Shown here: positions 3-41,159 of the stretch, piece by piece
How positions within the stretch are numbered: position 1 is the stretch's first letter
How the letters are laid out: every line of letters begins with the position of its first letter
IMG/VR virus record: IMGVR_UViG_3300021197_001481
Location: 1-64,000 of that record
Reading direction: 5' to 3' (one strand)
Source: a virus
Length of the DNA: 64,000 nucleotides
Translations under genes and position numbers: made by a program
The notes under the pieces: model-generated
The model's database searches: none
The model's input: only the letters and a program-made list of their open reading frames with translations
What the model was told of the DNA's origin: nothing

Positions 3-320
3 ACTGGAGAAGAAGTCGAAGTCCAGTACCCATTTGAAAATGGTTACGGATCTCCCATGTACACCAATGTCATGTGGCGAGACAACTACCGTACACCAGA
101 CAAGAAAGAGTATTTCATGCCGACTCCCGATGCTACAACAGGACAAGGACAGGGTACACCAGAGGAACTTCGATTCGATCCCGAAACGATGACTCTGCCT
201 TGGACGAGTCCTGCTACGGGCGTTCACTATGAAGGAGATGCCTCTAAGTTAGCAAGTCACAAATGGAATGACTACGCAAACAACGATGATCTACTAGAGA
301 AGTGGGACAACACAATTTGA
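3..320 (+). CDS. Hypothetical protein, 5'-truncated by window edge
   Basis: The frame of ORF 57..320 is open back to nt 3 (TGEEVEVQYPFENGYGSPM...); its TGA stop overlaps the TTG of the next ORF. Confidence 0.6.
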   Translation, partial: TGEEVEVQYPFENGYGSPMYTNVMWRDNYRTPDKKEYFMPTPDATTGQGQGTPEELRFDPETMTLPWTSPATGVHYEGDASKLASHKWNDYANNDDLLEKWDNTI

Positions 321-1372
321 AGCAATTAATTTTCGCACTTTCGGCAACCTTCTGCGTCACTTCGGCGGCGCAGGAGGTTTGTCGTCCCCCAATGGTTTCT
401 TTCGGTGTGCATCGTGAAGAACTCAAAGACGGTTGGTTACATTCCACCGGAGGAATGGTTAACGAAACTCGAATGCTTGAGGTTGATTATTTTGATAATC
501 GTCGCATAGATCAATTTGAGTTTACCTCTCAGGGGTGGGTAGACTTGACACCCATTGCTATCCAAGGTAGAAAAATAAAATATAGACACAAAGTACCAAT
601 CAACTTAGGTGACTACACTATATCCCAAGACACACTCGACTATGAAGTGTGTGCCTCTGATGGTTACGTCACATTCTATTGTGAGAAATATGTTGCATCC
701 GGAGAGACTGAACGTATTGAGTGGGCATATACCGTAGAGATCGCACCATTCGGGGATCTCAATGGTGACGAGTGTATTAATGCAAGAGATCTTGGATTGT
801 TGCTTGGTGAGTGGGGAGTAGAAGGATCGCCGGGAGACTTCAACAATGATGGAACCGTAGATTCAACAGACTTGGGCATTCTACTTACAAACTGGAAAGA
901 CTACGACTGCATCGAACCACCAGATGATCCGGAGAATGGACCATACAATCCAGTGTGGGAATCGGCAGATGACATACTCGCCTTTACCATCGACTCATTT
1001 ACCGAAGTCCTTCTCACTGAAGATGTCACGGTAGAGAATCTAAAGGGTAGAATGATTGGTATCGTAGACGATGCTGGTAATGGTGCAACACAATTCTTAC
1101 ACATGATAAGCGGATGGCAAGTCCTTGGTTTATCGGGATGGAGTCCACTTGATACATGGGTGGTGGAAGTGTACGACGATGATGTATTGGTGGGTAGAAC
1201 CTCATCTGGTTCGGATGGACCAGTGTACAACCCAGACAGCACTGCCAACTATGGAAACTCTATCTATTGGAAACCAGCAATTGAACTGCCTAAAGTTGGG
1301 GATCGGTGGATCCTGTATCGATGGATAGACACGCCGGATATTCCAGAATATCCACCTTCTAGAGTGAACTGA
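317..1372 (+). CDS. Putative secreted protein with internal paired dockerin-like (Ca-binding) repeats
   Basis: Probable TTG start at 317 (TTGA overlap) gives a signal-peptide-like N-terminus MKQLIFALSATFCVTSAA|QE; motif GDLNGDECINARDLGLLLGEWG...GDFNNDGTVDSTDLGILLTNW at nt ~752-895. Confidence 0.7.
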   Translation: MKQLIFALSATFCVTSAAQEVCRPPMVSFGVHREELKDGWLHSTGGMVNETRMLEVDYFDNRRIDQFEFTSQGWVDLTPIAIQGRKIKYRHKVPINLGDYTISQDTLDYEVCASDGYVTFYCEKYVASGETERIEWAYTVEIAPFGDLNGDECINARDLGLLLGEWGVEGSPGDFNNDGTVDSTDLGILLTNWKDYDCIEPPDDPENGPYNPVWESADDILAFTIDSFTEVLLTEDVTVENLKGRMIGIVDDAGNGATQFLHMISGWQVLGLSGWSPLDTWVVEVYDDDVLVGRTSSGSDGPVYNPDSTANYGNSIYWKPAIELPKVGDRWILYRWIDTPDIPEYPPSRVN

Positions 1373-1382
1373 TTTCTTTTGT

Positions 1383-1390
1383 TATAAATA
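1383..1390 (+). promoter_or_regulatory. T4-type late promoter TATAAATA
   Basis: Exact T4 gp55 consensus, intergenic, upstream of ORF 1423 (SD GGAGG). Confidence 0.65.
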
Positions 1391-1422
1391 GAATGTCACA
1401 ATACCTAACATATGGAGGATAA

Positions 1423-2451
1423 ATGCGACTACAATACACTTACGAAGAGAGCGACTGTTACGAATACGATCCAGAGGCGACATACATCGGTGGTGCGCCC
1501 CCGACCCGAACCGAGGGTATTCCCGTTGGTTGGAAAAAAGGATCATTTGCAGAACAAGACGGACTTGATCTTTCATCCTTCAATGTTCGCAACCGCCGAT
1601 ATAATAACAAATCAGGTAGCACCAACCTAGACGATATCAATAACTGGAACAGCGGTTATTGGGCGACTGTTCTTGTTTCGCCTAAGCACGCAGTGGGTTG
1701 TCGCCATTACTGGAGACAAGTTCCAAGTCAAGAACGCAATCAGCGTTTCATGGGTAAAAGCGGAAAGATGTATTACCCCGAATGGGAATCTACCACCGAA
1801 TTAAGTGGAGATAAAATTGTAATTACATTTAAAGAAGAACTTCCTGATGATGTAACACCAATTCAGTGCGGGGATCTTGAGTATGTGCCAGTGGGAAGTA
1901 AGATCTACCAATTAACCAATCAGGGTATGCTTCACTACATGTATAGCAAGGGTGGTAGAATGTCTGGTTATAGTGGTCGTGTGTTTGACTTCGAGTATGA
2001 AGTTGACGACATCATGGGCGAAAGACTAGGAATCTGGAGTGGTGATTCTGGTACTCCGACATTTGTCAAGGACGAAGACAACGACAAACTCTATTGGTTA
2101 GGAAATAAATGGGGTGGTTTCCCTGTACGAGAAAACGATCCTTCTACGATTGAGTTGTCTGATTTCCTTGCAGGTGCAACGAGTGACGCTCGTCCACGAG
2201 GTTATGACTTTCCTATCGCCAAACTCAGTGGTGGAACTATAGACTTCAACAATGACGGTAAGATTGATTCTGCCGATCTCGGACATATTCTATCAGCATG
2301 GGGAACCAATCCCAAGATCAATGAGTATTTTGAACTACACGATCTAAACGACGACGGAGTGATCGACTCTAGTGACATGGGTGAGATACTTGCCAATTGG
2401 GGTATAACTGGTGATAAAGTAATTTTTGATCCTGACGAGATCGACGAGTAA
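1423..2451 (+). CDS. Trypsin-like (PA clan) serine protease with C-terminal dockerin-like domain
   Basis: TVLVSPKHAVGCRHY (His motif), GDKIVI (candidate Asp), GDSGTP (Ser motif); C-terminal DFNNDGKIDSADLGHILSAWG...DLNDDGVIDSSDMGEILANWG. Confidence 0.7.
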   Translation: MRLQYTYEESDCYEYDPEATYIGGAPPTRTEGIPVGWKKGSFAEQDGLDLSSFNVRNRRYNNKSGSTNLDDINNWNSGYWATVLVSPKHAVGCRHYWRQVPSQERNQRFMGKSGKMYYPEWESTTELSGDKIVITFKEELPDDVTPIQCGDLEYVPVGSKIYQLTNQGMLHYMYSKGGRMSGYSGRVFDFEYEVDDIMGERLGIWSGDSGTPTFVKDEDNDKLYWLGNKWGGFPVRENDPSTIELSDFLAGATSDARPRGYDFPIAKLSGGTIDFNNDGKIDSADLGHILSAWGTNPKINEYFELHDLNDDGVIDSSDMGEILANWGITGDKVIFDPDEIDE

Positions 2452-2783: not shown

Positions 2784-3059
2784 ATGACTGATCGATCAAA
2801 AGATGCTTTACACAAGAAGTTTGGTATGGCAGCAATTTTAGTAGGGTGGTTTGTGACCATTGCCGCACTTGTATATAATTTTGCAACAACTAATGCAAAT
2901 TATGCACATAGAATTGCAACGATTGAGCAGGAATTACTCAACCTCGACTCACGAATGGATGTGAGTGAGGCATTCAGGATTGAACTTGCTGCTGACTTAG
3001 CAGAAATCAAGACGGATCTACTCTGGATCCGTCGAACAATGGAAGAACAAGGAAGATAA
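2784..3059 (+). CDS. Small single-TM plus coiled-coil membrane protein
   Basis: Hydrophobic FGMAAILVGWFVTIAALVYNF followed by a heptad-like helix; SD AAGGAG; upstream CTACATA. Confidence 0.65.
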   Translation: MTDRSKDALHKKFGMAAILVGWFVTIAALVYNFATTNANYAHRIATIEQELLNLDSRMDVSEAFRIELAADLAEIKTDLLWIRRTMEEQGR

Positions 3060-3062
3060 ACT

Positions 3063-5336
3063 ATGTGGTATCCACCCAATAAACAACAAATCGAAAGTAA
3101 CACTAACCCATTCCGTGCTTTGACTCCAGAGCAGATGCGTCTCAAGCACCAACAGGAGATCGCTGAACAAGAGATGCGGAAGGCAGAAGAAGAGGGAAAA
3201 AAGAATCTTGATGAAAAAGTCAAGGTTCCTTCTAAACTGATCAAAGATTTCCAGAAGGAGATCAAGAACGAACGTGATTATCAGTTCGCCGGGACAGACG
3301 ACAAAGAGAACAAAAAGCAAATCATTGAGGATGAGAAAGAACTTCTTAAAGTTTTAAAGTTCTTACAAAAAGGACAAATTGAAAAAGCATATGACGCTTT
3401 CGACGCACTGGATACCGCGTTAGCAGATGTCGTGCCACAAAAACTACTCAAGTTTATGGACCAGAATCTCGATGAAAATACCATTGCACTTCTCGATGAA
3501 ATCGTAAGAGCAAAAGACAAGTACCCTGAAATTGACAAGATCAAAAAGGTCATGAAGAAAAAGGGCATCGGGTTCTACACCGAAAAGGGTAAGATCATGG
3601 TCAACCCCAAGAATGAGATGGAAGCAAAAGAAGCACTTAACAAAGCATTCGGTGGCGACTACGAGAAGAAAACCGGTATGCAGGTCAAGGGTGATAAAAA
3701 GACTTCACTCTCCGCAGAGACAGAACTTGATGAAGGTCTCGGTCGGAACATGCGTATGATAAAGTCGGTCAAGGATAAGTTGACCAAGGCAGGCATCAGA
3801 AGTGCCATCATGTTTGATGAGGTCCATGTCGCTCCCGACAATGTAAAAGAAGCAGAAAAGATTGTTGGTAAGATGCCATTCAAGGTTGTCCCACAAAAGA
3901 AACTCGAAGAGATGTCTGCCAAGGATCACTACAGGAAAGTCATGAGAGGTGGCAAGGGTAAGGGATTCGTGGTTAGCAATCCCATCGACCGTGAACGATA
4001 CCCTAACCGTGAGAAAGAAGGACTCGAAGGACCATACAAGAGTCGCAAGTCTGGTAAGATTTTCTACTACGACAAAAAAGAGGGCAAGTATTACGATCCT
4101 GATTCTGATATGTTCCTTGATGTTTCCGATGTCATGGAGTCAACCGAACTCGATGAAGCAACCTTCCACACTGTTTTTGTCACTGCAAGTAGAACAGCGT
4201 ACAGAAAACTCGAATCATTGATTGCATCCATTGATGGATATAAAGGGGCAGAATTTGATAACGGCAAAGCATCTTTCGTCTTTGATGCAAAGAGTCATGG
4301 TGGTGCAGCACGCAGAAAAGTGGGCGAGTTTATCAAGAAGGTAAGTGGTGCTAAATTCAGTCACGCCATAGCAGAGGACACCGAACTCACTGAAGCATGG
4401 ACCGCAGACAGCGTGAAGAAAAACGCCGACATTGGTTCCGATAGTGGTTACGGTATCAACATCAAGAAGCGTGGGTCGATCACCAAGACTCCATACAAGC
4501 ATATGCTCATGCTACGAACCAGTGCCAAGAAGATCAAGGTCAGATTCGATCATGGTAAGGATGAGTTCGTTGGTTCTCCTGAGCAGGTTGCAGATCACCT
4601 CAACAGAATCCTTGGTATCAAGGAAAACCCAGAGTACGAAAAGGAACTATCAGATATGAACATCGGAGAGATCAACGAAAAGGTCATGCGACCAATGGGA
4701 CTTCCCGGTAAGTTCCCACCCAAGGGTAAGTTTACCAAACAACAGATTGATGCACTTCGTAAGGAGTACGCCAAGATTGGTAGCGTCGATCCCTCGTCCA
4801 AGACCTATGGTAACTTAACAGACTTCCTTGATTCGTTGTCCGATGATATGATCAAGCAACTTTCAACAGCGAAGATTAAGTTTATCTCAGGACTTGCACT
4901 CAACCGTGCAATGAAACGAGGACTCAAGGACTCATACGAGTTTGACTCAAAGACTGGTGAGTACATTCGTGCAGACGGAGAAGATCCACTAGGAATCGAC
5001 GGTGGGTTGCAGAGACAGGTCAAGGAGTCCGTTGAACTAGATGAAGCAGCAGACGAAGTTGCTGCCCGTGAACTGACTCTTTACATCGAAAATGATGCCA
5101 GTCTTTATCGACAAAGAGTTCAACCAATTATTAAGAACCTTGCACGCAAGATGAAGAAGGGAACCTTTGATGCGGAACTCGCAGTAAAGGGATTCATGTA
5201 TGCAGTCGAACATGGTCTTAAGAATTACAAGAAAGACTTTGGTCCCGGATTCAAGATCGACAAGGATACCAAGAAGAAGGTTGCACAAGACCTACTAGAC
5301 AACTTCATGGATGAGATCGAGGACGCAGCAAAATGA
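3063..5336 (+). CDS. Lys/Glu-rich multi-module protein with repeated (E)L-x-E motifs; putative prohead-protease-processed internal head protein
   Basis: 757-aa ORF; ETELDE, ESTELDE, EDTELTE, ESVELDE, NLDE, KLEE, EINE separate short domains. Confidence 0.6.
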   Translation: MWYPPNKQQIESNTNPFRALTPEQMRLKHQQEIAEQEMRKAEEEGKKNLDEKVKVPSKLIKDFQKEIKNERDYQFAGTDDKENKKQIIEDEKELLKVLKFLQKGQIEKAYDAFDALDTALADVVPQKLLKFMDQNLDENTIALLDEIVRAKDKYPEIDKIKKVMKKKGIGFYTEKGKIMVNPKNEMEAKEALNKAFGGDYEKKTGMQVKGDKKTSLSAETELDEGLGRNMRMIKSVKDKLTKAGIRSAIMFDEVHVAPDNVKEAEKIVGKMPFKVVPQKKLEEMSAKDHYRKVMRGGKGKGFVVSNPIDRERYPNREKEGLEGPYKSRKSGKIFYYDKKEGKYYDPDSDMFLDVSDVMESTELDEATFHTVFVTASRTAYRKLESLIASIDGYKGAEFDNGKASFVFDAKSHGGAARRKVGEFIKKVSGAKFSHAIAEDTELTEAWTADSVKKNADIGSDSGYGINIKKRGSITKTPYKHMLMLRTSAKKIKVRFDHGKDEFVGSPEQVADHLNRILGIKENPEYEKELSDMNIGEINEKVMRPMGLPGKFPPKGKFTKQQIDALRKEYAKIGSVDPSSKTYGNLTDFLDSLSDDMIKQLSTAKIKFISGLALNRAMKRGLKDSYEFDSKTGEYIRADGEDPLGIDGGLQRQVKESVELDEAADEVAARELTLYIENDASLYRQRVQPIIKNLARKMKKGTFDAELAVKGFMYAVEHGLKNYKKDFGPGFKIDKDTKKKVAQDLLDNFMDEIEDAAK

Positions 5337-20465: not shown

Positions 20466-23400
20466 ATGGCATATGAGTTAGTGCAACAAATTATTAAAGA
20501 TCTAAGAATTCGTAGAATATTTCTGCGTTTGTTTTATGATGGAACTCCGCTCCCCTTCAAAGCAACAAGACCATTCAGTTACTTTGTTGACACTATCGGT
20601 GTAGAAATCTTCGGTGAGATTGATGATGTTACATCTGAAATATCAGAAAAATTAAATACAAATATTGAAGATATTCATGCGTACCTAACAGAAACTGAAC
20701 CACTCCCACCAAAAGTAGAACCAAAAAGTTATGTCGCTGGTGACACCGAATCACAATTGGTTTCTTTTGGCAGAGTACAACCCACACAGGTCAGTGAATT
20801 TGAAAGAGGGATACAAGGAGAGGACGGTAAAGACGGCGCAGGAATCTCGGAAGTTACTATTGTCGATGGTGAACTGGTTGTTGAACTAGACAAACCAACT
20901 TCAACAGACATACGCGAATCTGAGACAGTAAACCTTGGCGTTGTTAAAGGCGACAGTATATCTGCTGTTCGGGACGGGGACAACCTAGTTGTAACCCAGA
21001 CCGGAGGTGATGGTACTGTAACCACAATCAGTGATGATAAAGTAGTCGGTGACGATGGTAAGGGTGTTGAGGTATCAATCGCAACAAACCCAGATGGTGT
21101 TCCTGTTCTAACGGTTATAAACATTGACAAAACAGGAGCAACCACTGAGGGAGCAACCGCTGGACTATCTGGTGCCGATGGCAAAGACGGTTCTGATGGT
21201 CAATCCGCCTTAACTGCTTTTGATACAACTGCGTGGTTAGTTGCCGGAGACCTTGGAGGCGGCACACCACAACTTGGCGGTGGTATTGCTGGTGTTGGTG
21301 GAGTCAGTGTTCCTGATATCATAAGCACGGGCGGTCAGTTTTCAATATTCTTTAACGGACAATCAACCGGTTCTGGTGATTTTATTAAGTTCCCCGGAAC
21401 TGTTGCACAGGGTGATAAAGTAGCAGAAACACAAACTCTACTGATCGAGGGTACACAGTTAGATTTAATCCAAGTACCGGTAGATTCTATCACCGCTCCA
21501 AGTAATGCTGGTTCTTCTTTTGGTGTTGATCAAATTTTTGCCCGAGTTGTTCTAGACACAAATGCCGTGACAGGACCGGGAATAAATGTTAATCACTCAA
21601 ATTCATTTGGGTTTACAGCGACTGTAAGTATAACCAATGTAAGAGAACCGGGTGATACATTTGGTGATCAAAATGTGTCCTCTAGTTACATTAAAATTAA
21701 AAATGTTATTTTGCCGAAGGGTGCAAGCGGTCCGGACGGCGCAGCAGGAACAGCAGGAACCACTGGTAACACAGGAACCGCTGGTACAACTGGTACAACT
21801 GGTACGACTGGCAACACCGGTGAAACAGGTGAGACTGGGGCAGCAAGCAACCTCGGAGTTGCCCGATATCAATTTACTATCAATGGTCCGTTTGCAGGAA
21901 ACTCAGGATTCCCAGAGTTTAACTCTGCAATGACTAATGGTTTCTTACACCTTAGAAATGATCACAGAGGTGCAACTGGATGTTCTCTCGCAATATCAAT
22001 CGAAACTATTGATAATCAGTCAAGCGACAACTTTTCAGGTCTAGGAAAAGTAATAACCGCGACTATAGAAAAATTTGGTGATCCCACAACAAAAGCATCA
22101 ATTGATTTAGTGGGTGGTTTCTTTAACAACCAAACAGATAGTTATATAAATGGAAATGAATGTGATATTGCTCAGAATGTTATTTCTGGTGCATCCTCTT
22201 CGGACGCACTACAAGACGGAGACATAGTTGTTCTTAGTTTTGTCAGGGGTGGACAAACTGGTGCTGGAATAACAGGTGCAAGACTTGAAGGAACTAATCT
22301 GGTATTTGATACTCTCAATGCTGATGGAAGCACCGGGTTATCCTCTGATTTAGGAAACGTCAAAGGGTCTGACGGTGCCGCCGGTACAACTGGCACAACT
22401 GGCAACACCGGAAACTCAGGAACCACTGGTGCTGGTGTTACCGGTGTTACAATTTCTCCAGAAGGTGTTCTTGAAATTGTAATTCAAGATTCAGATGGAA
22501 ATACATCAGGAGTCACTGCTGGAGTATCTGGTCCTAAAGGTGATGATGGTGCCGCTGGTACAACTGGTACAACTGGCAACACCGGTGAAACAGGAACCAC
22601 AGGAAACACAGGAAACTCAGGAACCACAGGCGGTGGTGTTAGTGGTGCTTCGTTAGAATATGGTGTTATACAAACCCAACCCGATTCGGGTAAAAACATA
22701 GTAAATCAGCAACACAGTTTTGCATTTAACTTCACGATTCAGGATGGGGATGGTAACACCTTTATTGTTGAATGTCCCGAGACTACAGGAGGATTTACAT
22801 ATAACTCCGGAGTTGTCATTGGTGATGGTGGTATCGATCCACAACCCGGACTATTATACACAGAATCATCCAGCGAATACGAATTCTCTGGTGGTGATGT
22901 AACTTATTCAATTCCATCATATGCAATTGGATCAACCGCAACAACAACATTAGAACAACTCGACGGCGGGACTTCGGATCTTTATTTTATACTAACTACA
23001 GGAAACTCATCAGATCGGGCACAAATTGCTGAAGGTATTAGTATGGATACTGCGACCGGAAGAGTGGGGATCAAATTTGGTCTTGAACTAGGTCACGGAA
23101 TTAGTTTCAGTGATGGTAGTTTCCTCGGTAGCAAAAATGAACTTGTTACAAGTGTTAATGGATCGACTGGAGATGTTCTTACCATACCATCACAGGTTGC
23201 CCACTTCACAATCCAAGCGTCATCTTCTATATCCACAGGTGCAAAGACATCAGCACTTCACAGAATACCATATAGTGCAAAAATTACTGAGGTTGGAATT
23301 CGTACAGGAAATACAGGAGGAATCACTGCATCCTTTAGAAAAATACGAAATCAAGATATTTTTGACATGACTGAAGGAATAAGTTACTCGTCATTGATCG

Positions 23401-23558
23401 GAACCGTAAATGCCGCAACAGCAGCATTTGGTGCAACCGCAACAATCAACTCAATTGATGGTCCCAACTATGTTTATATGAACATTGATGCCATCGCCTC
23501 TGGCATAACACTCGTCCAAGGGTTTATGGAATACATTAGATTTGATGGGAGCGACTAA
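20466..23558 (+). CDS. Fibre-like protein with interrupted collagen-like (Gly-X-Thr) repeats
   Basis: GTAGTTGNTGTAGTTGTTGTTGNTGETGETG and two similar blocks; VTSVNGSTGDV fibre motif. Confidence 0.7.
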   Translation: MAYELVQQIIKDLRIRRIFLRLFYDGTPLPFKATRPFSYFVDTIGVEIFGEIDDVTSEISEKLNTNIEDIHAYLTETEPLPPKVEPKSYVAGDTESQLVSFGRVQPTQVSEFERGIQGEDGKDGAGISEVTIVDGELVVELDKPTSTDIRESETVNLGVVKGDSISAVRDGDNLVVTQTGGDGTVTTISDDKVVGDDGKGVEVSIATNPDGVPVLTVINIDKTGATTEGATAGLSGADGKDGSDGQSALTAFDTTAWLVAGDLGGGTPQLGGGIAGVGGVSVPDIISTGGQFSIFFNGQSTGSGDFIKFPGTVAQGDKVAETQTLLIEGTQLDLIQVPVDSITAPSNAGSSFGVDQIFARVVLDTNAVTGPGINVNHSNSFGFTATVSITNVREPGDTFGDQNVSSSYIKIKNVILPKGASGPDGAAGTAGTTGNTGTAGTTGTTGTTGNTGETGETGAASNLGVARYQFTINGPFAGNSGFPEFNSAMTNGFLHLRNDHRGATGCSLAISIETIDNQSSDNFSGLGKVITATIEKFGDPTTKASIDLVGGFFNNQTDSYINGNECDIAQNVISGASSSDALQDGDIVVLSFVRGGQTGAGITGARLEGTNLVFDTLNADGSTGLSSDLGNVKGSDGAAGTTGTTGNTGNSGTTGAGVTGVTISPEGVLEIVIQDSDGNTSGVTAGVSGPKGDDGAAGTTGTTGNTGETGTTGNTGNSGTTGGGVSGASLEYGVIQTQPDSGKNIVNQQHSFAFNFTIQDGDGNTFIVECPETTGGFTYNSGVVIGDGGIDPQPGLLYTESSSEYEFSGGDVTYSIPSYAIGSTATTTLEQLDGGTSDLYFILTTGNSSDRAQIAEGISMDTATGRVGIKFGLELGHGISFSDGSFLGSKNELVTSVNGSTGDVLTIPSQVAHFTIQASSSISTGAKTSALHRIPYSAKITEVGIRTGNTGGITASFRKIRNQDIFDMTEGISYSSLIGTVNAATAAFGATATINSIDGPNYVYMNIDAIASGITLVQGFMEYIRFDGSD
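21776..22630 (+). repeat. Three related collagen-coding repeat blocks
   Basis: gc(t/c)ggtacaactgg(t/c)acaactgg...ggcaacaccgg at ~21780, ~22378, ~22552. Confidence 0.7.
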
Positions 23559-24700
23559 TGGCATTAACTGATTTTTTCTTATCACCAGATGGAGATGGAT
23601 CGAAAGACGGTTCGGATATCGATAACGCATTCCAAGCGATTACCAGTGGAGATTGGACATCTAGTCTTGATTCACAGACATTGCAAGATCGAAGGTGGAT
23701 ATGGTTAGAGGGAACGTACAACTGCACAACTCAACTTGTTACTTCGGGAACTGTTCCTACTGCTGCCGCACCAATGCAATGGGTGGGTGCTGATTCGTCT
23801 GGTAATATTCTTCGTCCAAAGTTTGATGAAACTGGTATGAGTCTAGATCTTACCAACTACCCAAAATTTGTTTGTAGTGCAGACGTAGAAATGATTTTCA
23901 CCCATGAACATACTGCGTATAAGTGTTTATCTTTTGAAAACACAAGTGCATCTTTTAGTAAAAGTGGTATCATAGAAAATACCGCTGGTGATCTTGATGT
24001 TCAAAACTGGACTGGTTGTTTTTTCAAGACAGCATCAAACAGCACTGGTGTTGAGGTCTTAACAATGAGTAACTCAAACTTAAACATGTGTGAACTTGTA
24101 ATGACAGGTGGAGGTTTTTCCTCTGTGGTGCGTATGCTTAGTGGTGGTGTTATGAACAACTGCCGTATAAAAGGTCCGGGTATTCTTTCTGGCGGTGGAA
24201 ACTCTTGTGGAGTTCGGATAAACAGTGGTAGCGTCACAATCCTTGATACATTGATTTACAATATTCCGGGGGATGCTATTTTCCACGAAAGTACAAACGA
24301 TAGACAGTCAATTTCAGTATCAGGTTGCTCTATTATAGATGTTGCTGGTGCCGGTATTGACACCAGCAGTTTAGACGGCACAAACATTGCATCAAGAGGA
24401 TCGGTAATGGAGTGTTGTGTTATGTTTAATTGTGGAACAGGAATTGAAGCAGCAGCAGAAGATGGTAGGCAACCCGGCGCACAATTCCTTGCAATGGGAG
24501 AAAACACTGCTAACTTTAGCAACATGGATTCATACGAAGACATGATTGATGTGATTGCAATCACAACTGCCGATTTTGTTGATTATGCGAACGATGATTT
24601 TAGAATCAGAAGAGACTCCGCGATCTATAAAATTCTAGGAGACAAAAACATGGGTGCGTTACAAAATGAAGATTATGAATTTGCGAGTGTGTCCTCATGA
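23558..24700 (+). CDS. Right-handed parallel beta-helix (pectin lyase-like) protein
   Basis: FFLSPDGDGSKDGS...NAF start; periodic xxCxI/N strands; ADFVDYANDDFRI...S.I...MGA C-terminal cap. Confidence 0.65.
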   Translation: MALTDFFLSPDGDGSKDGSDIDNAFQAITSGDWTSSLDSQTLQDRRWIWLEGTYNCTTQLVTSGTVPTAAAPMQWVGADSSGNILRPKFDETGMSLDLTNYPKFVCSADVEMIFTHEHTAYKCLSFENTSASFSKSGIIENTAGDLDVQNWTGCFFKTASNSTGVEVLTMSNSNLNMCELVMTGGGFSSVVRMLSGGVMNNCRIKGPGILSGGGNSCGVRINSGSVTILDTLIYNIPGDAIFHESTNDRQSISVSGCSIIDVAGAGIDTSSLDGTNIASRGSVMECCVMFNCGTGIEAAAEDGRQPGAQFLAMGENTANFSNMDSYEDMIDVIAITTADFVDYANDDFRIRRDSAIYKILGDKNMGALQNEDYEFASVSS

Positions 24701-24963
24701 AACCAGCAGCAAGAATGGGCGATCAGTGTGCTGGTCAAATAGTCACCGGAGCAAATTCTGTTTTTATAGAGGGAATGCCCGCCGCCCACCTCGGTAGTGT
24801 GGTTTCGCCTCATCCATACGGAGACCACATTCATAGCGTGACTATTGTTAGCGGTTCAAATAGCGTTTTTGTTGAGGGAAAACCACTCGCCAGACTTGGT
24901 GATCAGGCAGGGTGTGGAGTACATAGGATAACATCAGCAGCAAGTTCTGTTACAGGAGATTAA
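24697..24963 (+). CDS. PAAR spike-tip protein (gp5.4-like)
   Basis: PAARMGD, PAAHLGS, PLARLGD repeats. Confidence 0.92.
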   Translation: MKPAARMGDQCAGQIVTGANSVFIEGMPAAHLGSVVSPHPYGDHIHSVTIVSGSNSVFVEGKPLARLGDQAGCGVHRITSAASSVTGD

Positions 24964-24965
24964 AT

Positions 24966-25808
24966 ATGCCAGTTTTTACAAGACCATTATTAGACGTTAC
25001 AGGATGCGACATTCCGTCGTTAGATCTATCCTCCGCAGAAAAAGCAATTATGGAATTAGTTGGTTCTGACGCTGGTGGATTTCAAAATCCAATTGAAGAT
25101 GCCATGAGCAGCGTTCAGGGTTCTATTGGGAATGCTATAGCAGGAATTAATACCAGTCTGGGTGTTACGTTTAATGACGCTGATGGTAATCCAGTGGTTG
25201 ATCCAGAAACCCTAGAACCTCTTACCACTTTTGGATTTTTATCACAAGAATTAGGAAAACTCGATTCAGGTATAGATGACTTTAGAATTCACAGCGACCG
25301 ACTCAGTGGTGTAAGTATCGCAGATGCCTTTGGTTCTGACAAATACGGTCCCGGTGGTATTCAGGGCGAGTATCCCGGTCTAGGTGGTCTTCACTCTGTT
25401 GCGTCACAATTCAACACACTAAAAGAAACATTGAGGGATCCTGCTCAGGCAGCAGAGGATCATTACTCTCCAATTTTTAACAGTCTTTTCGGACCGGGAG
25501 ACGACATGATGAGATCAATTCAGTCTTTGGTTGATGGAGATGTTGGAAACTTTATGACAAACTTCCCAACCGGTGGGAACGATTCCCTTGCAGAACTTTC
25601 ATTACTAGGAGCGAACATCCAAGACCTCCAAGCAAGTATTCCCGCACTTATCAACGATGATAATCTACAATTCGAGTTCGCATTGGACTTCATTGCAAAA
25701 CAAACAACCGGACTTAGCGTTCTATCCATGTTGGATGAACCATGTTTCGGAACTCGCCTATTAGGAAAAATAGGTAGTCCAGATTTTAAGAGTATTGCTG
25801 GTTTATAA
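24966..25808 (+). CDS. Hypothetical protein (baseplate region)
   Basis: 280-aa ORF with SD AGGAG, between PAAR and gp25. Confidence 0.7.
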   Translation: MPVFTRPLLDVTGCDIPSLDLSSAEKAIMELVGSDAGGFQNPIEDAMSSVQGSIGNAIAGINTSLGVTFNDADGNPVVDPETLEPLTTFGFLSQELGKLDSGIDDFRIHSDRLSGVSIADAFGSDKYGPGGIQGEYPGLGGLHSVASQFNTLKETLRDPAQAAEDHYSPIFNSLFGPGDDMMRSIQSLVDGDVGNFMTNFPTGGNDSLAELSLLGANIQDLQASIPALINDDNLQFEFALDFIAKQTTGLSVLSMLDEPCFGTRLLGKIGSPDFKSIAGL

Positions 25809-35500: not shown

Positions 35501-38278
35501 ACTGATATCATAAGTGCAAATCAATTTGCTGTAGCAGACTATCTTGGAACAATGAAAGTGTCTCCTAGTAGTGATAACTATTTTACAAGCAGAAAACCAC
35601 TAGTAATGGTAAATGCCATAGGTGAGGTTGATAACTGGGAAACTACAATCAGTGCCTTCCAACGAGGACGAGCGTCTGGTTTTGGATCACAGTGGAGAGA
35701 TTGGGAAACACTCTGGTTTGGTTCTAGAAAAAGAAATGACGTTAATGTTGAACACGATTCATCTAGTTCTGAATATACAAACCCAAGAAGATCTTCATAC
35801 GTCTCTAGAGTTATCTCTGATAAACTCTTAAAAAGAATTGGAAATAAGATTGTTGATTTAAGTATTGTACCTTATATCAATGCTAGAACGATTACATACA
35901 CTGCGGAAAATCTGAAACCAAGCACCTTGCACAGAGTTTTCTTTGATGGTGTACAAATGACCCAGACAACACCGCTACCGAGAACAGATATTGCTGGTAA
36001 GATAAGTGGATCATTTATCTGTCCGAATAATATTCTTACGGGCAAAAAACTAATCAGAATTGTAAATACAAATGATGGAACTCTAGATCTAGCAACTTCA
36101 AGTGCTGATGCAGTATATTATGCAGAAGGGTTGTTAGACACTAAAGAAGGTGACTCATACTCTGTGCGTCCCGTCATAACTAGACGGAAAGCAAGCAACG
36201 TCGATGATGTTTCAAGTGACTATTATGATGCAAACTCTGCAAACAATCTTTCTAGATCTTATAATTCATTAACCCCGTTTGCTCAGGAAATTTCAGTAGA
36301 CCCTACAAATTTCCCAAATGGAATTATGCTGAAAGATATTGAATTATTCTTCTCTAAAGTTGCCACGGGAACCTCACTAGAACTGGACCCAATCAAAGTT
36401 CATATTCGACCAATGTATAACGGCGCACCACATCCGTTTAAAGTTCTACCATTTTCTGAAATAACAAGAACAAACGTAAGAACGGCAAAATACGATTCTC
36501 CAATTGGTAGCGGAGAAAAGTTTGAATTTTCTACTCCAGTGTACCTAAAACCAAATACAAATTATGCAATCTGTATTAGTACAAATGGAAATTATGAACT
36601 CTTTTATGGTGAAGAGGGAGAAGTGGAGAAAAAGGGAGACGTAGTTAATGCAACACAAGGCACCATGACCACTACAAAACCATTATACTTCGGATCACTA
36701 CACCTACCCCTCAACAATGGTACTTCAACAGCATATGATAATCGATTCCTTAAGATGGCAGTGAACCAATGTTCCTTTGGGGTGTCAGAATCGGGCGACT
36801 CGATAAATACAAGTTCTGTTAAGTTTGAAACAGACATCTCATTGACAGTTCCTTATCATGTATGTTTTATCCATAGCAACACACAACCATCGGACGCAGT
36901 AAATCCAGTATATGATTTGACTTCATCTAAACAGATAAGTGGTTCTATTGTTAGAAATAATATCGATGTCAATACAACAATTGATGATTGGGACGATAAA
37001 CTTATCATTGCTCCTGATCAACCCCTGTCTATAACCACTAAATTTATATCAGACAGTAAGGGTGCAGTTGCCAGTATGGTTGATGGTGACAGGTTAGGTT
37101 TCCTTGCAGTAAATTACATGGCAAATAACGATGACGGAGCAGCAACAACAGAAGAACTGCAACCCACATCAAGATTAGCATCAAACAGATCACGTTACAT
37201 AGGAAGAAAAGTAAATCTAGACAGAGCAGCAGATGATATTGTTGTGATGGTTGACGGTTCATATGTCAACCAATCAAAAATTAGGGTCTATGTAAAACTA
37301 CAGGGACCAGATCAACCAAACGGTGTTTTTGATGATAATGATTATGAAGAGTTATTCCCCGAAGGCAACCCAACGCCCGGAGAATTTGAAGCACTTAAAC
37401 CAACAGGTGAAGTTGGTGGTGTGATGAGATTTACAACCAACAACCTACTGCCCGGAACAAGTACAGAATTTACTGCCTATCAAGTTAAAATTCTATTGAT
37501 GGGTCAAAACATTGCCAATAATGGTAGTGCTAGAGAAGTTCCTGTTATCAATACAGTCTCTGCTGTTCCTCTTCGTAGAGTTTCACAAGATGAAATTCGT
37601 AGATATACTCCAGCAGGAACAGTATTGTCGTGGGCAGGTGGAGCAGCACCATTTGGATTTGTGTTATGTGATGGTTCTTCTTACAATATTGCCACACAAC
37701 CAGAATTTAAAATTCTCAAGGAAGCAATTGGAAGCACATTCAATCTAAACACTGATCCGGGTGGTAACCAATTTAGAGTTCCTGATCTTCGAGGAAGAAC
37801 TATTGTAGGAACTTCCGTATCCTCACCTACTTCCTCTACATATTCCTTATCCGAAAGAACAATTTCTGATTCTAGTGGTAGCGAATCTATTACTCTTACA
37901 AAACAACAACTTCCTCCACACTCTCACGCACTAGGCGAAGGTAGAGACACCGAGGGTGCTGGTCAGCAGGGTGAAGATAATTATAACCCCAACGATCTGA
38001 GGGTCTCGGACAGGTTGCCTGATGGTGCGTTTATTCCAACCTCAACAAATATGGGCGGAAATGATGATGGTAAGCAAAATGCGATTTGGACTTTCGACGG
38101 TAAGTGGAATAGTGGTAGACATGGTACGCTTCGTCCAGTTGCCGGAAAGAACCCGCCAATTAGCAATACAACAGACCCAGAAGATGATGAAGGTTACCGA
38201 AGCATGGCAGGAAGACCAATTACAGAATCACAGAAGATGGACCCCTTCCTCGTTCTTAACTATATAATTAAGATCTAA
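32567..38278 (+). CDS. Large virion structural protein (VrlC/DUF4815-like) with C-terminal tail-collar domain
   Basis: PYYDDFDP.K.F.RI..RPG...QAREITQLQTILQNQI, PGADRY, LARRTFDESGNY; C-terminal PAGTVLSWAG..APFGFVLCDG..FRVPDLRGR. Confidence 0.85.
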   Translation: MTTKSYRNDFHGKNPYYDDFDPAKKFVRIMSRPGLPLQAREITQLQTILQNQIERIGDHFFEEGASVRGGDITEANGVALRLANTSYTTDQLKSFINKVIQNASSGVRARITSFADKSATLSNDEYQILFATYITSGSFDSGDTLEIAGTLPLETVDLIPAANSGPPAVSIATNIVGINTGIYYADGFFIESDAESIAVAGTTYDSGADASHRDFSNPSASIGYDIKRELISSDEDESLKDPSFGFYNFNSPGADRYKVTLELSQKDISGGLTFDSEDYFEIMRIINGETTKQVRYTDYAIFEDTLARRTFDESGNYTVRPFQITTASHSEAFGQTDETKHAIKIDSGKAYIGGYEFETIAPRYIAVSKGRTTNRIQQATLSTKLENYVTLISSNDVQKGDERTTFTKNQKASIQRNTTEIGTCNVRSIEDVVIDSTTTETRLYLFNINMTNSDADDGISAFKDSTHIAVNNGTSNVQRFQIGTETGDTPLENIGPSRQIFKAPIGSGLIRASGSDGLVSSFLVKKPYTFDIASGAATITSTKPFLDGTESNYVIYYDDSSSGDGATKMKVGDSTNGFVLTTNNNDTSPKVTITKGSSVVDSGEGTIIASQRWQSDASSDIENNIRVKTLVDSTMGAKLGNATTGIIELDHCDVFSLTTLNDGVREVSSSFELDVNSGVDAYRRSRLILRAGATCATDEDGNLVINSASYKRFQHSGDGPFTVDSYPLTQITYEEIPNFTDPETGEIYSLADAYDFRPVATDANNTSFDNGSGGAQVVAFSNPVNTSTVSYEHYLSRIDSVVLDRQTREFKIVEGKPSVSPIAPELDSLDMNLGNLIVPPYTRLFSDIKYRYIDNQRSTMMDINEIEGSQQFDSYYAFKNDLEQEALNRAQNFRSSRTAFSDGIFVDTFIGHNNAVTAKRSHNCSIDPENGELRPAFESTFIRMGITGASLGSDIVHTDDNIFLPTSTSVVYDSNMIATDIISANQFAVADYLGTMKVSPSSDNYFTSRKPLVMVNAIGEVDNWETTISAFQRGRASGFGSQWRDWETLWFGSRKRNDVNVEHDSSSSEYTNPRRSSYVSRVISDKLLKRIGNKIVDLSIVPYINARTITYTAENLKPSTLHRVFFDGVQMTQTTPLPRTDIAGKISGSFICPNNILTGKKLIRIVNTNDGTLDLATSSADAVYYAEGLLDTKEGDSYSVRPVITRRKASNVDDVSSDYYDANSANNLSRSYNSLTPFAQEISVDPTNFPNGIMLKDIELFFSKVATGTSLELDPIKVHIRPMYNGAPHPFKVLPFSEITRTNVRTAKYDSPIGSGEKFEFSTPVYLKPNTNYAICISTNGNYELFYGEEGEVEKKGDVVNATQGTMTTTKPLYFGSLHLPLNNGTSTAYDNRFLKMAVNQCSFGVSESGDSINTSSVKFETDISLTVPYHVCFIHSNTQPSDAVNPVYDLTSSKQISGSIVRNNIDVNTTIDDWDDKLIIAPDQPLSITTKFISDSKGAVASMVDGDRLGFLAVNYMANNDDGAATTEELQPTSRLASNRSRYIGRKVNLDRAADDIVVMVDGSYVNQSKIRVYVKLQGPDQPNGVFDDNDYEELFPEGNPTPGEFEALKPTGEVGGVMRFTTNNLLPGTSTEFTAYQVKILLMGQNIANNGSAREVPVINTVSAVPLRRVSQDEIRRYTPAGTVLSWAGGAAPFGFVLCDGSSYNIATQPEFKILKEAIGSTFNLNTDPGGNQFRVPDLRGRTIVGTSVSSPTSSTYSLSERTISDSSGSESITLTKQQLPPHSHALGEGRDTEGAGQQGEDNYNPNDLRVSDRLPDGAFIPTSTNMGGNDDGKQNAIWTFDGKWNSGRHGTLRPVAGKNPPISNTTDPEDDEGYRSMAGRPITESQKMDPFLVLNYIIKI

Positions 38279-38293
38279 TACAGAAAGACACTA

Positions 38294-40087
38294 ATGGCAG
38301 GAAAAGCGTTTAATAATCTGAATAAGATTTTCCTCTCGGACACCTTCCGAGCGTGGTTTGATAAAACAAACCAAATTGTCAACACATTAAATCCTCTTGA
38401 GGTTTATGGTGTTACCGCAGGCGAAGGCGAAGTAGCAGGAATAACAATGGACTTCGGATCTGATGGTATTGTTACCGTTGGTCTTAAACTTCCTGATGCA
38501 CTAACCGGCGACTTTACATTCAATAGTGGTGTGACTTTTGCTAATTTTGTAAGTGTTTCTGGTCTTACTGTAGACTTTGCTCCCAACGGAGGAAATGGTG
38601 CGACACTGACTGGACGAGTTGTCCGTAGCGTCAATGGAGCGTTTGGGGATGTTGCACTCGACTTTGTTGCAATTCCCGGAAACTCTGCTGATGGCGACAT
38701 CTTGTATTATGAAAATACTGGTGCAGGTGCAACTTTCAGATCATATAATCTTTTCTCAGACGGAACTGCCGACAATGGAATGATGCATATTGGTGGGAGC
38801 GGCGGCGTATTCTTTGGTATTACCGCAGGTGGTGCATCTTCTGCAAATGAATTTGTAAAACTAGGAAACATCCAACTAGTAGGTGCAACCGCATCTGGTA
38901 TCTACATGGTGGACAACTCACAGACAGCATTAAGCACCGCAAAGATTGCGGGTGCAGATATTCGTTACGGAACCGAAGGAAGTTCACAACTTCTAACAAT
39001 CGGTGGCAGGAATATTTCCGGTGTTGCACACGGAACCAAGAATCTAATTCTTGATTTCAACAGACAGTCGATTATTGTCGGTGGTGGTGCTGTTTCTAGT
39101 GTAGGAACCACAAACGGTATTGTAGATATTCGAGACGAGGGTAACATTGGTATCCCCATACAATACACAGACACAAGTGGATCCACTTTTGCCATTAAGT
39201 ATCTTTCCGCAGGTGAAACACTAGGAGGACTTTCTGGTGGCGGCGAAGCGGGTCTTGCCCACTTCCAAGGACACCCAGCAACAAAGGGTCTTCTAGGAGA
39301 TAAGAGAATCCGTTTGGCAAATGTCGCTGGATCTGTTGAAGTGGAACTAGTAGGATCTGGTAAAACTTCTGGGTTTGCTGTCTACGGACAAAAACCAGAG
39401 TATGGAAATGCTCTTCTACCTGCAATGGTCGTGAGACGAGACGGTGATGTGGTAATAGGTGGTATTCGTGCAGAAGATGGCGGTATCACAGGAACCACAT
39501 ACGGTGCATTGAACATTGCAAGTGGAAAACTCCGTGTCGGTGGTTCTGCGGGTGCAGTAGTAACAAACGGTTATCAGGTTCTTTCTTCAGATGGTGATGT
39601 TGCAAGTTGGAAAACTCTGTCATCGACCGCTTTTAATTATAGTGGAGATGTAGGATCAGTTCTAAATGGTTACCAATCTCAAACAGACATTGTTTTAGAT
39701 CAAGCACTTGGTGGAATTAGGTGTCAGGATAGAGATGGAAATGACATGACAGGACCATTCTCCGCAACTATCAATATGCCGCTTGCATTACTTACAGGAA
39801 GCGTTGATATTTCTGATGTATCCCAGCAAGCAGTGTATGGGGTTAGAATGGTATTAGATGGTATTAATATAGACAAGTTCATTAGTGCAAGAGATTTTGT
39901 TTCCATAGGAAGTTATGGATCAACCACTTCCAAATTAATGAGTCAATCATTCACTTTCAGCGGAAATGCAAGCAGCAGTGTGAAGTTTTTCCCCTTCATG
40001 ACAACACTAAGCACATACGGGATTAATCAAAAATTCTTATATCAAGCAAAAGGGTCATACTTAGTAACTTTCAATAAGTTAGGATAA
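38294..40087 (+). CDS. Tail fibre-like structural protein
   Basis: N-terminal SDTFRAWFDKTNQI motif of T4-like fibres; VRSVNG.FGDV; Gly/Thr-rich. Confidence 0.6.
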   Translation: MAGKAFNNLNKIFLSDTFRAWFDKTNQIVNTLNPLEVYGVTAGEGEVAGITMDFGSDGIVTVGLKLPDALTGDFTFNSGVTFANFVSVSGLTVDFAPNGGNGATLTGRVVRSVNGAFGDVALDFVAIPGNSADGDILYYENTGAGATFRSYNLFSDGTADNGMMHIGGSGGVFFGITAGGASSANEFVKLGNIQLVGATASGIYMVDNSQTALSTAKIAGADIRYGTEGSSQLLTIGGRNISGVAHGTKNLILDFNRQSIIVGGGAVSSVGTTNGIVDIRDEGNIGIPIQYTDTSGSTFAIKYLSAGETLGGLSGGGEAGLAHFQGHPATKGLLGDKRIRLANVAGSVEVELVGSGKTSGFAVYGQKPEYGNALLPAMVVRRDGDVVIGGIRAEDGGITGTTYGALNIASGKLRVGGSAGAVVTNGYQVLSSDGDVASWKTLSSTAFNYSGDVGSVLNGYQSQTDIVLDQALGGIRCQDRDGNDMTGPFSATINMPLALLTGSVDISDVSQQAVYGVRMVLDGINIDKFISARDFVSIGSYGSTTSKLMSQSFTFSGNASSSVKFFPFMTTLSTYGINQKFLYQAKGSYLVTFNKLG

Positions 40088-40094
40088 TATACAC

Positions 40095-41159
40095 ATGGCA
40101 GATTACGACGGAATTATAAGAGGACCAAACAGGGTTTATTATGTCTTTGATAGACTGAGCGGAGATGGTACGGGTGGTACATCTGCCAATTTTTTAACCA
40201 CCATTGATATATCGGGATCAACTACAGCATATGTTAGTGCTGGGGGTCATACGGTCGGCACCACTGCTGAACTAGACATGTATGTTGGTAATAGAGCATA
40301 TACTAACTTCACAAGAAAAAACGAAGTATTATTTTCTGATTTTGTGAACGGAGGAATCACTTCAACCACAACTTCATTTACACCAGATCCTAGAATTCAG
40401 TTTGGTATTATCATAAACGGAACTGCTGGTTCGTTTACTGGACATCATATGGATGAAATTCATGTGACCGCTAATGCAGGAGAAACTTTCCAAGGATTTT
40501 TAGGGCACATAGAATACAGTGCAAACAACACATCACTAGCAACAGACACAGCGTTATTGGGATTGGTTGCTTTTGGATTATCCGGATCTGATGCAACATC
40601 CACTGAAGATCTATACGTTATGGGAGCAGGAAAAACTCTTGAAAATAAAGATAATTCAACAACTACCACAGTAGCGAGTGCATCTAAAATTAATTATGTT
40701 GATGTGGATGTTTATAATAGTATTATTTCTGGACAAATTCGTTCTCAATTTAATACATTTGGTCTAATTGGAATAACCATTGGTGATGCTGATCAGAAAC
40801 AAAATGTATTCTTTAATCCATGTGACGAAGAACTTGTTTCCTACGTTTCCACTTTGCTACCTGCGTTTGATCACGGGGCATCTGGTGCTTCTGGACAAGA
40901 TTATACTCAGACAAATGTATTTACTATGTTGGCGGGTGTGACTGGCGATCTTTCGGATGTAAATACTAATGGTACAAATGTTATTTATGGAGTTACCTTT
41001 AATGCTTCCACTGGTGGAACAGTAGGAAACTCCGCCTTTGAAGAATTTTCTCATGCAGTCATTCATAAGTACACAGAGAAACAAAACAACATGGGCGGAA
41101 AACTATATGAACTGGGATTAAAGAAATCAACAAGAGCAATGGATGAAATAGATTTCTGA
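40095..41159 (+). CDS. Hypothetical structural protein (G-x-T rich)
   Basis: 354-aa ORF at the end of the tail operon. Confidence 0.65.
   Translation: MADYDGIIRGPNRVYYVFDRLSGDGTGGTSANFLTTIDISGSTTAYVSAGGHTVGTTAELDMYVGNRAYTNFTRKNEVLFSDFVNGGITSTTTSFTPDPRIQFGIIINGTAGSFTGHHMDEIHVTANAGETFQGFLGHIEYSANNTSLATDTALLGLVAFGLSGSDATSTEDLYVMGAGKTLENKDNSTTTTVASASKINYVDVDVYNSIISGQIRSQFNTFGLIGITIGDADQKQNVFFNPCDEELVSYVSTLLPAFDHGASGASGQDYTQTNVFTMLAGVTGDLSDVNTNGTNVIYGVTFNASTGGTVGNSAFEEFSHAVIHKYTEKQNNMGGKLYELGLKKSTRAMDEIDF

Follow-up and report, generated by a model that had tools for sequence, protein, structure and literature searches.

Type I dockerins of solved structure, such as those of C. perfringens NagH (2ozn_B), Bacteroides cellulosolvens (2y3n) and Clostridium cellulolyticum (2vn5_B), are built of two tandem calcium loops and their helices, and positions 10-11 of the repeats make the cohesin contacts in the classical members. 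In this study, a dockerin module of the same build was found on three proteins encoded in the first 64 kb (positions 1 to 64,000, hereafter the window) of the 86.8-kb virus contig IMGVR_UViG_3300021197_001481 from IMG/VR. The three carriers are a predicted exported protein (open reading frame 1, ORF1), a predicted serine protease (ORF2) and a gp7-like baseplate wedge subunit (gp7). Compared with the clostridial dockerins, the helices of the phage modules carry a DLGxLLxxW(G) signature instead, and the repeats are closer together, with starts 26-33 residues apart within each module. The phage module differs further in being encoded by a virus, in its location, in one case, within the chain of a baseplate protein and not at a terminus, and in that no cohesin was found in the contig.

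Proteins of Planctomycetota grouped in the NCBIfam family NF041540 (GC-type dockerin domain-anchored protein) share with the phage proteins the DLGxLLxxWG style and the layout of a cargo followed by a terminal module, protease cargoes included. Short-form relatives of ORF1, which end in NW..C, resemble the WG.C ends of the cellular GC-type dockerin proteins; in the window, unlike in the cellular proteins, the modules of ORF1 and gp7 are not at the very C-terminus. Another point of comparison is offered by the Ig-like domains that are reportedly present on phage structural proteins and by T4 Hoc, an accessory domain protein on the phage structure. In these, virion proteins have gained a small, independently folding domain that derives from cells, presumably for weak adhesion, with the core fold unchanged, and the same applies to gp7. 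The phage dockerin differs from them in being carried also by a non-structural protease and by predicted Sec-exported proteins, which suggests addressing to one place and not mere decoration.

The nearest published concept is the "planctosome", a hypothesis of non-cellulosomal cohesin-dockerin assemblies with peptidases in freshwater Phycisphaerae, the class to which most of the nearest cellular dockerins of this study belong; peptidases tagged with dockerins are proposed there to dock to a scaffold at the cell surface (Andrei et al. 2019, PMC6461901). The model, itself a hypothesis, concerns cells, and the style of the phage dockerin differs from that of the dockerin-like tails found beside a cohesin gene at two loci of the class. 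Our literature search found no paper that places a phage dockerin in a receptor-binding protein, a fibre or the baseplate, none on cyanophage dockerins and none on the GC-type family, which agrees with the statement of an earlier first-pass annotation of this DNA, made from the sequence alone, that it knew of no described phage system of this kind. For an E. coli phage tail protein, a dockerin-associated carbohydrate-binding fold only is mentioned (PMC5967307), and the main text of a 2025 review of Planctomycetota contains the term "phage" once and "dockerin" never (PMC12673574). Already known in kind are accessory modules on phage proteins and non-cellulosomal dockerins; new are the clean insertion in gp7, an orphan protease whose dockerin is one of its exchangeable tails, and the occurrence of all three carriers in one phage.

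One dockerin module on three unrelated proteins

The first-pass annotation had noticed the same paired motif on three otherwise unrelated proteins, labelled a signal-peptide protein, a trypsin-like protease and baseplate gp7, and had taken it for a type I dockerin. When the whole window was scanned in six frames with a regular expression, exactly 6 copies of the motif were detected, forming 3 pairs with one pair each in ORF1, ORF2 and gp7 (Table 1), and none was present elsewhere in the 64 kb. Mononucleotide shuffles (n = 200) contained a mean of 0.005 copies, with a maximum of 1, and residue shuffles (n = 200) of the 107 open frames of at least 100 amino acids (aa) contained none. In pairwise BLASTP, the module was the sole region common to the three proteins (E ~1e-9), with nothing else below E 0.01, and the three modules were mutually 41-47% identical. 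Each is laid out as two tandem 12-residue loops of calcium-binding type, with Asp or Asn at positions 1, 3, 5 and 12, and a predicted helix after each loop.

All three modules scored over the gathering cut-off of the Pfam model Dockerin_1 (PF00404; 22.9 bits), and a search of the complete 86.8-kb contig with the same model revealed no further dockerin. For ORF1, a structure model was built from a 45-sequence alignment, with a mean predicted local distance difference test score (pLDDT) of 76.7 and approximately 90 over the module. Residues 148-202 of this model superposed on 2ozn_B with Z 7.0 and a root mean square deviation of 1.5 Å over 50 residues (26% identity); the values for two other solved dockerins were Z 5.4 (2y3n_D) and Z 5.1 (2vn5_B). 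Helices at residues 161-169 and 188-196, with pLDDT of approximately 90, follow the calcium loops. Loop 1 is preceded by a beta-strand and not by a helix, which argues for the dockerin layout rather than the EF-hand layout. These results confirmed that the three proteins carry genuine dockerin-type modules, by the Pfam cut-off in all of them and by the fold match in ORF1 as well, and both the shared motif and its dockerin identity stand as first proposed.

The module of ORF2 also passed two EF-hand models, EF-hand_6 (PF13405; 34.8 bits, cut-off 25) and EF-hand_1 (PF00036; 26.1 bits, cut-off 25.4), and those of ORF1 and gp7 passed neither. With the profile of the ORF2 family, the dockerin 2y3n_B was the best match among PDB sequences (E 3.5e-7), and calmodulins followed closely (~1e-6). 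In the ORF2 model, the module was of low confidence (pLDDT 54-68) and showed three helices in dockerin order, with no helix before loop 1; both repeats were kept in 13 of the 13 family members.

Table 1. Positions in the window of ORF1, ORF2, gp7, their parts and the motif copies
Feature	Position	Strand	Description
Cut gene upstream of ORF1, 3' end	3..320	+	gene truncated by contig start
ORF1	317..1372	+	signal peptide, beta-sandwich, dockerin, C-terminal beta domain; 351 aa (TTG 317) or 356 aa (GTG 302)
ORF1 Sec signal peptide (predicted)	317..370	+	M-KQLIFALSATFCVTSAA; presumed cleavage before QEVC
ORF1 N-terminal domain	389..751	+	nine-strand beta-sandwich, residues 30-150 (GTG-302 numbering), pLDDT ~90
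ORF1 dockerin module	752..901	+	two calcium loops, each with a helix; Dockerin_1 28.4 bits
ORF1 motif copies	755-805, 836-886	+	
ORF1 C-terminal beta-rich domain	971..1324	+	model residues 224-341, pLDDT 60-80; long form only; no family or fold assignment
ORF2	1423..2451	+	chymotrypsin-fold serine protease (predicted), C-terminal dockerin, no signal peptide
ORF2 protease domain	1423..2208	+	GDSG at residues 207-210; Ser209 at nt 2047-2049; His89, His95, Asp130 invariant
ORF2 dockerin module	2230..2403	+	Dockerin_1 28.9 bits; EF-hand_6 34.8 bits
ORF2 motif copies	2242-2292, 2341-2391	+	
gp7-like baseplate wedge subunit	28121..30610	+	829 aa; PF23786 39.3 bits (cut-off 27); phrog_17744 E 6.6e-53
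gp7 dockerin insertion	30305..30448	+	residues 729-776; Dockerin_1 26.3 bits
gp7 motif copies	30305-30355, 30383-30433	+	

The label gp7 was upheld by matches to two wedge-subunit families (Table 1), and the gene is flanked by genes for gp6-like (phrog_219) and gp8-like (phrog_438) proteins. The C-terminal 180 residues of the window protein were aligned with those of seven orthologues. A block of 48 columns corresponding to the module was present in the window protein and in four orthologues (L012, L015, L016 and L017) and cleanly absent from the other three (L018, L019 and L021), with the flanks conserved on both sides. When 11 gp7 loci were compared with the window protein, the 6 with the module were 64-72% identical to it, and the 5 without showed identities of 55%, 48%, 48%, 29% and 37%. 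Judged from these alignments, the gp7 dockerin is a clean insertion of 48 residues, limited to the closest orthologues. Among the matches to isolate phages listed, none aligned past residue 417 of gp7. The protein has no export signal.

ORF2 starts with an ATG, 5 nt downstream of a GGAGGA ribosome-binding site, and likewise has no export signal. In the model (mean pLDDT 69.4), its first ~260 residues adopt a trypsin-type protease fold, and Foldseek returned at least 500 matches in the PDB at E <= 1e-3. Those listed included thrombin, plasminogen, SplB, V8 protease and norovirus protease, and all but two were trypsin-like or viral 3C-like proteases or protease-like domains, which agrees with the label of trypsin-like protease. 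Template modelling scores for single-domain protease chains were 0.37-0.49 when normalised to the target and 0.24-0.35 when normalised to the query, long multidomain chains being lower in the target-normalised value. An Atlas feature search gave "serine protease family" at 0.98. The GDSG sequence, His89, His95, Asp130 and several aspartates were invariant in 13 of 13 ORF2-family sequences, and the His and Asp of the catalytic triad are presumably to be sought among these residues. No Trypsin or Peptidase_S model of Pfam matched the protease part at E <= 1, and no PDB sequence matched ORF2 outside the dockerin.

An exhaustive search of 1.84 billion representative proteins yielded 34 relatives of the protease part. 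GDSG was present in 28 of them, and 4 of the 6 lacking it are N-terminal fragments. A dockerin was recognized by regular expression in 14 of the 34, and 12 long forms (381-1014 aa) bear other C-terminal extensions; therefore, the protease appears to exchange its tail, and the dockerin to be one tail among several. When 14 relatives in which the expression recognized no dockerin, among them the 12 long forms, were scanned with Pfam, no domain was revealed that would explain its replacement. One distant relative (P0103) matched Peptidase_S6 at 23.6 bits. A conserved N-terminal motif, roughly Y-N-P-x-x-H-D-(I/L)-Y-x-Y, was also observed in the protease family (P0084-P0106).

The sequence TATAAATA, which we take to be the T4 late-promoter consensus, lies at 1383-1390, 33 nt upstream of ORF2. 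This is the sole copy in the window, as against 3.25 expected by chance, and ATAAATA was absent within 80 nt upstream of every structural gene; on these grounds it was not counted as evidence of a late promoter.

For ORF1, the first-pass annotation had placed the start at 317. The TTG at this position overlaps the stop of the upstream frame and agrees with the starts of the homologues (MKQF...), and it is most likely the start codon. As for the signal peptide proposed there, the most hydrophobic 12-residue stretch of the N-terminus reached 2.15 on the Kyte-Doolittle scale, the start is basic, small residues stand ahead of QEVC at -3 and -1, the pattern is kept in homologues, and the model has a helix at residues 4-19. 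From this visible and conserved pattern, ORF1 is predicted to be Sec-exported, with cleavage probably before QEVC. The beta-sandwich that follows was matched best, at middling Z values of 6-8, by the beta-sandwich found at the C-terminus of PL8 lyases and of GH98 enzymes. The possibility that this domain is a hidden cohesin was considered and not retained; Foldseek against the PDB returned nothing at E <= 1e-3 and no cohesin was among the 50 VIA-align matches listed, a result that does not by itself rule out a cohesin. An Atlas feature search of ORF1 produced no usable match.

The ORF1 family comprised 45 members in a large protein database and occurs in a short form of ~195 aa and in a long form with the C-terminal domain. 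Short-form relatives stop directly after the dockerin, often in cysteine (NW..C). The BFVD database contains a viral homologue of the short form (199 aa, E 3.8e-15), and it also has an entry of an uncultured myovirus under the name "Dockerin type 1".

In RNA libraries of two studies, contigs covered positions 314-383, 451-690 and 600-879 of ORF1 and 1383-1876 of ORF2 with 0-1 differences. They show the presence of the sequence and not transcription of ORF1 or ORF2, DNA carry-over being possible, and nothing follows from the positions left uncovered. In contigs of one seawater DNA run, many alternative letters were found at 1479-1887, within the protease domain of ORF2, which points to co-existing variants of the gene.

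Related proteins in viral contigs and in cells

Further tagged proteins were found in related viral contigs. The nearest relative, with an ORF2 95% identical to that of the window, encodes just downstream of ORF2 a 276-aa protein in which a dockerin is combined with a signal peptide (L006:6319-7149, 41.3 bits), and another relative encodes a 265-aa protein of the same kind (L007:3041-3838, 23.7 bits). With PF00404, matches at E <= 0.1 were obtained in 5 of the 5 related contigs and exceeded the cut-off in 4. In 7 related loci, an exported protein of 622-671 aa is encoded upstream of the ORF1 homologue and has one dockerin-like repeat, recognized by regular expression, near residues 69-92; the 4 such proteins scanned matched no Pfam family. 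The frame cut by the start of our contig (Table 1) may be the C-terminus of such a protein, as it was 31% identical over 71 residues to residues 560-630 of L023:1524-3428, a weak match (pairwise E 2e-5).

After the predicted signal peptide, the exported proteins of this gene island (317-400 in the window; L006:6319-7149; L007:751-1638 and 3041-3838) share the motif A-Q-(E/D)-x(0-2)-C-(R/P)-P-(P/R). The cysteine of this motif and the terminal NW..C could represent a disulfide clasp or a processing site. A 91-aa protein with one hydrophobic helix is encoded 3' of ORF2 (2784-3059) and is conserved beside an ORF1 homologue in a contig without ORF2 (L034:6634-6897); the presence of ORF2 in the island therefore appears to vary.

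When IMG/VR was scanned with sequence patterns, 315 stretches were matched, 36 of which were confirmed as relatives of ORF1 or its module. Matches to the dockerin only, in contigs with phage-type neighbours, were located among others on S8 subtilases (L043:10123-11574, minus strand; L046:3730-5133), on an M43 peptidase (L051:106-1290; L052) and on collagen-like or fibre-like proteins (L058 and L047). The repeats of the S8 and M43 peptidases are at or near the C-terminus; in these three peptidases and in the collagen-like protein the repeats were recognized by regular expression alone, with Dockerin_1 falling short of E <= 0.001. Taken with ORF2, these peptidases suggest that the combination of peptidase and dockerin recurs in phages, on three unrelated peptidase folds.

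Cellular relatives were sought in one genome per prokaryotic species with an alignment of the three modules, using patterns derived from the phage sequences. The 68 confirmed loci listed, several of which come from the same metagenome-assembled genome, were assigned by hand from their titles to Phycisphaerae, Phycisphaerales or Phycisphaeraceae (n = 30), other Planctomycetota (n = 12) and other phyla (n = 26). Thus, 42 of the 68 are planctomycetal, as are 9 of the first ten, in keeping with the earlier suggestion that this form of the module is typical of Phycisphaerae. Among the matches listed, identity to the ORF1 module reached 53-56%, above the identity of the phage's own modules to one another. 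Of the 16 nearest cellular proteins listed, 11 terminate with the module, often with a WG.C end; 11 of the 16 matched NF041540 at E <= 0.01, with 2 passing its cut-off, and the cargoes of the matching proteins include subtilases and an esterase. The tagged protein L007:3041-3838 of the related phage contig scored 23.8 bits with this family, against a cut-off of 29. A class-wide tally found dockerins in 34 of 201 genomes at E <= 1e-9, a threshold that proved too strict, with at most 30 candidates scored per genome, and is not a prevalence figure. By these comparisons, the phage modules appear to be of a sequence style common on secreted proteins of Planctomycetota and close to the GC-type dockerin anchors.

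Possible role of the module and its partner

A conserved calcium module has been gained independently by gp7 of the virion, by a protease and by exported proteins; it is swapped for other tails in the protease family and is terminal on many secreted enzymes of the nearest cellular relatives, and no phage socket for it was found in the contigs searched. This combination fits a targeting tag better than a structural element. We favour the explanation that the dockerin is a common address tag for one ligand of the host envelope, and consider it about evenly poised between right and wrong; the binding, the ligand and the exposure of the module on the baseplate are presumed. The module is a mobile add-on, inserted as a 48-residue block in a loop near the C-terminus of gp7 in one phage clade, placed at the end of a phage-specific chymotrypsin-fold protease whose relatives bear other C-terminal extensions, and set behind a beta-sandwich in phage proteins of a diversifying, predicted Sec-exported family. 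It would fold once calcium is available, in seawater or in the periplasm, and the folded module would bind one kind of host-envelope ligand. The tag on gp7 would then provide six extra contacts of the baseplate with the cell, that on ORF2 would hold the protease at the host surface, and that on the exported proteins would park phage proteins on the envelope of the infected cell.

If this idea is true, tailed phages would have a further, new means of making contact with the host, and the phage proteins that act on the envelope of the infected cell would form a new class. Dockerins outside cellulosomes are very common and their partners elusive, and the three short conserved modules of the phage are tractable baits; the tag is also a testable clue to the host of a widespread marine phage lineage without a cultured relative.

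Several observations weigh against an address tag of this kind. Since gp7 and ORF2 have no export signal and ORF1 has a predicted one, they would meet the envelope from different sides, which a model with a single ligand must explain. The three window proteins gave no match to NF041540 at E <= 0.1. In 301 genomes of the Phycisphaerae class, no relative of the ORF2 protease domain was found, which speaks against a planctomycete host. So does the G+C content of the window, 40.6% as compared with a median of 62% over the 68 cellular dockerin loci listed; cyanophages differ from their hosts in G+C by as much, so that a gap of ~20 points is weak evidence. The five Phycisphaerae genomes with the closest dockerins listed hold at least 24, 42, 54, 61 and 120 dockerin matches and no cohesin over the cut-off, and cohesins were detected in only 25 of 201 sampled genomes of the class. 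Dockerin-rich genomes without a cohesin raise the possibility that the module is not a protein-protein plug at all.

This last possibility leads to an alternative that we consider unlikely, namely a module without a partner, whose role is structural or that of a fold switch and depends on calcium. It would then stabilise its carrier proteins, or would hold them, and above all the protease, unfolded or inactive as long as they are in the calcium-poor cytoplasm, and let them mature only in calcium-rich seawater or periplasm. The conservation pattern of the ORF1 family is in its favour. Calcium-ligand positions were kept in 42-45 of the 45 members, with D152, D156, D163, D179 and D190 in all 45, making these residues the most conserved, while positions 10-11 of the repeats, the helix positions of the classical cohesin contacts, were variable. 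The lack of a cohesin in the phage contigs searched and in the five dockerin-rich genomes, and the higher score of ORF2 with the EF-hand than with the dockerin model, are also in line with a structural element. Such an element leaves unexplained the independent addition of the module to three unrelated proteins and to the exported proteins of relatives, as well as the exchange of the dockerin for other long extensions in the protease family. In the cellular relatives, moreover, a wide range of enzymes carry the module at one end, which is the pattern of a sorting or anchoring tag and not of a stabilising core.

The address-tag explanation can be extended to a specific host. The affinity of the dockerin module to planctomycetal sequences is the sole pointer in this direction, and suggests a planctomycete host. 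Shine-Dalgarno-like 4-mers were observed ahead of 39 of 57 genes (background 13%), and Bacteroidota largely lack Shine-Dalgarno sites; a Bacteroidota host is argued against by this, weakly. In the extended form, a marine T4-like lineage would infect Phycisphaerae-type planctomycetes and would have copied an anchoring tag of its host, gp7 latching the virion, the protease destroying the receptor or clearing the surface, and the exported proteins blocking sites to later phages. We regard this complete scenario as improbable, and the role of the exported protein as a decoy or exclusion factor, raised in the first-pass annotation, is pure conjecture. If the scenario were true, a virus would exploit the surface display of a bacterium at three stages of its infection, and the ligand of hundreds of orphan planctomycete dockerins would come to light.

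A partner encoded by the phage itself was also considered. The dockerins might plug into an unrecognised phage-encoded socket on the virion, the protease and the other proteins being mounted there and gp7 holding a fibre or decoration. That gp7 is a virion protein and that ORF2 has no export signal would suit such an assembly; many baseplate or fibre genes without a family (for example 23558-24700, 24966-25808, 38294-40087 and 40095-41159) could hide a socket, and the contig is only 46% complete according to CheckV. No match to the cohesin model PF00963 was obtained at E <= 1 in the 86.8-kb contig, and none of the 5 related contigs had a match over the cut-off, all these contigs being fragments except for one rated 100% complete. 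The sole weak match there (13.9 bits) lies in the conserved gp6 homologue of a single contig and was dismissed as noise. As the plug is on all the phage proteins concerned and no cohesin was found in these contigs, the partner is probably not encoded by the phage. The beta-sandwich of ORF1, the lyase and glycosidase matches of which are described above, offers no cohesin among the 50 matches listed, and ORF1 and its kin, having predicted signal peptides, would leave the cytoplasm, where virions are assembled. A socket within the phage is, on this evidence, very unlikely.

Some cohesins of the Phycisphaerae class occur on small proteins, in which a single cohesin lies between a signal peptide and a membrane helix at the C-terminus (L130:791-1393; L131:1393-2058; L132:1348-1971, minus strand). 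At two of these loci (L130 and L132), the gene beside that of the cohesin has a dockerin-like tail at its end, the style of which is another, without DLGxLLxxWG.

Finally, we give little credence to a general adhesion not directed at the host, in which particles in the sea, gels of polysaccharide or other cells would be what the module attaches virions and released proteins to, as has been suggested for capsid Ig-like domains; accessory adhesion domains are common on phage structural proteins, and other viral contigs place dockerins on collagen-like and fibre-like proteins (by regular expression alone in the collagen-like case), but this leaves unexplained the predicted Sec-exported dockerin proteins, which would act in or on the infected cell, and the tight sequence affinity to one bacterial phylum.

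Phage lineage and neighbouring genes

Matches to PHROG families identified a T4-type myovirus, with genes for baseplate hub and wedge, sheath, tube, portal, prohead protease and scaffold; the major head protein, terminase, gp32-like, UvsY-like and gp55-like late sigma proteins and a gp46/47-like nuclease were matched as well. The major capsid protein was at most 52.8% identical to that of an isolate (Pelagibacter phage HTVC008M), with 51-52% for cyanophages, and the phage therefore appears to belong to a lineage without a cultured relative. ORF1 and ORF2 had no tblastn match at E <= 0.01 among 50,697 isolate phage records, and the stretch from ORF1 to ORF2 was present in seawater and marine metagenomes under 12 study codes. 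No psbA-type gene was found in this contig and 4 related contigs, all 5 being fragments, and the window contains no tRNA gene.

A gene following that for the gp5-like hub encodes a 1030-aa protein with collagen triple-helix repeats (20466-23558), and a PAAR-motif protein is encoded near it (24697-24963). After gp8 follows a gene for a 1903-aa protein (32567-38278) with DUF4815 and a C-terminal phage tail collar domain (phrog_358), which is probably the main fibre or receptor-binding protein of the phage. Beyond the window, after the replication genes, the contig has a long run of ~20 genes on the same strand (64159-84334); judged by eye only, some of their N-termini resemble nucleotide-sugar epimerases or dehydratases and transferases.

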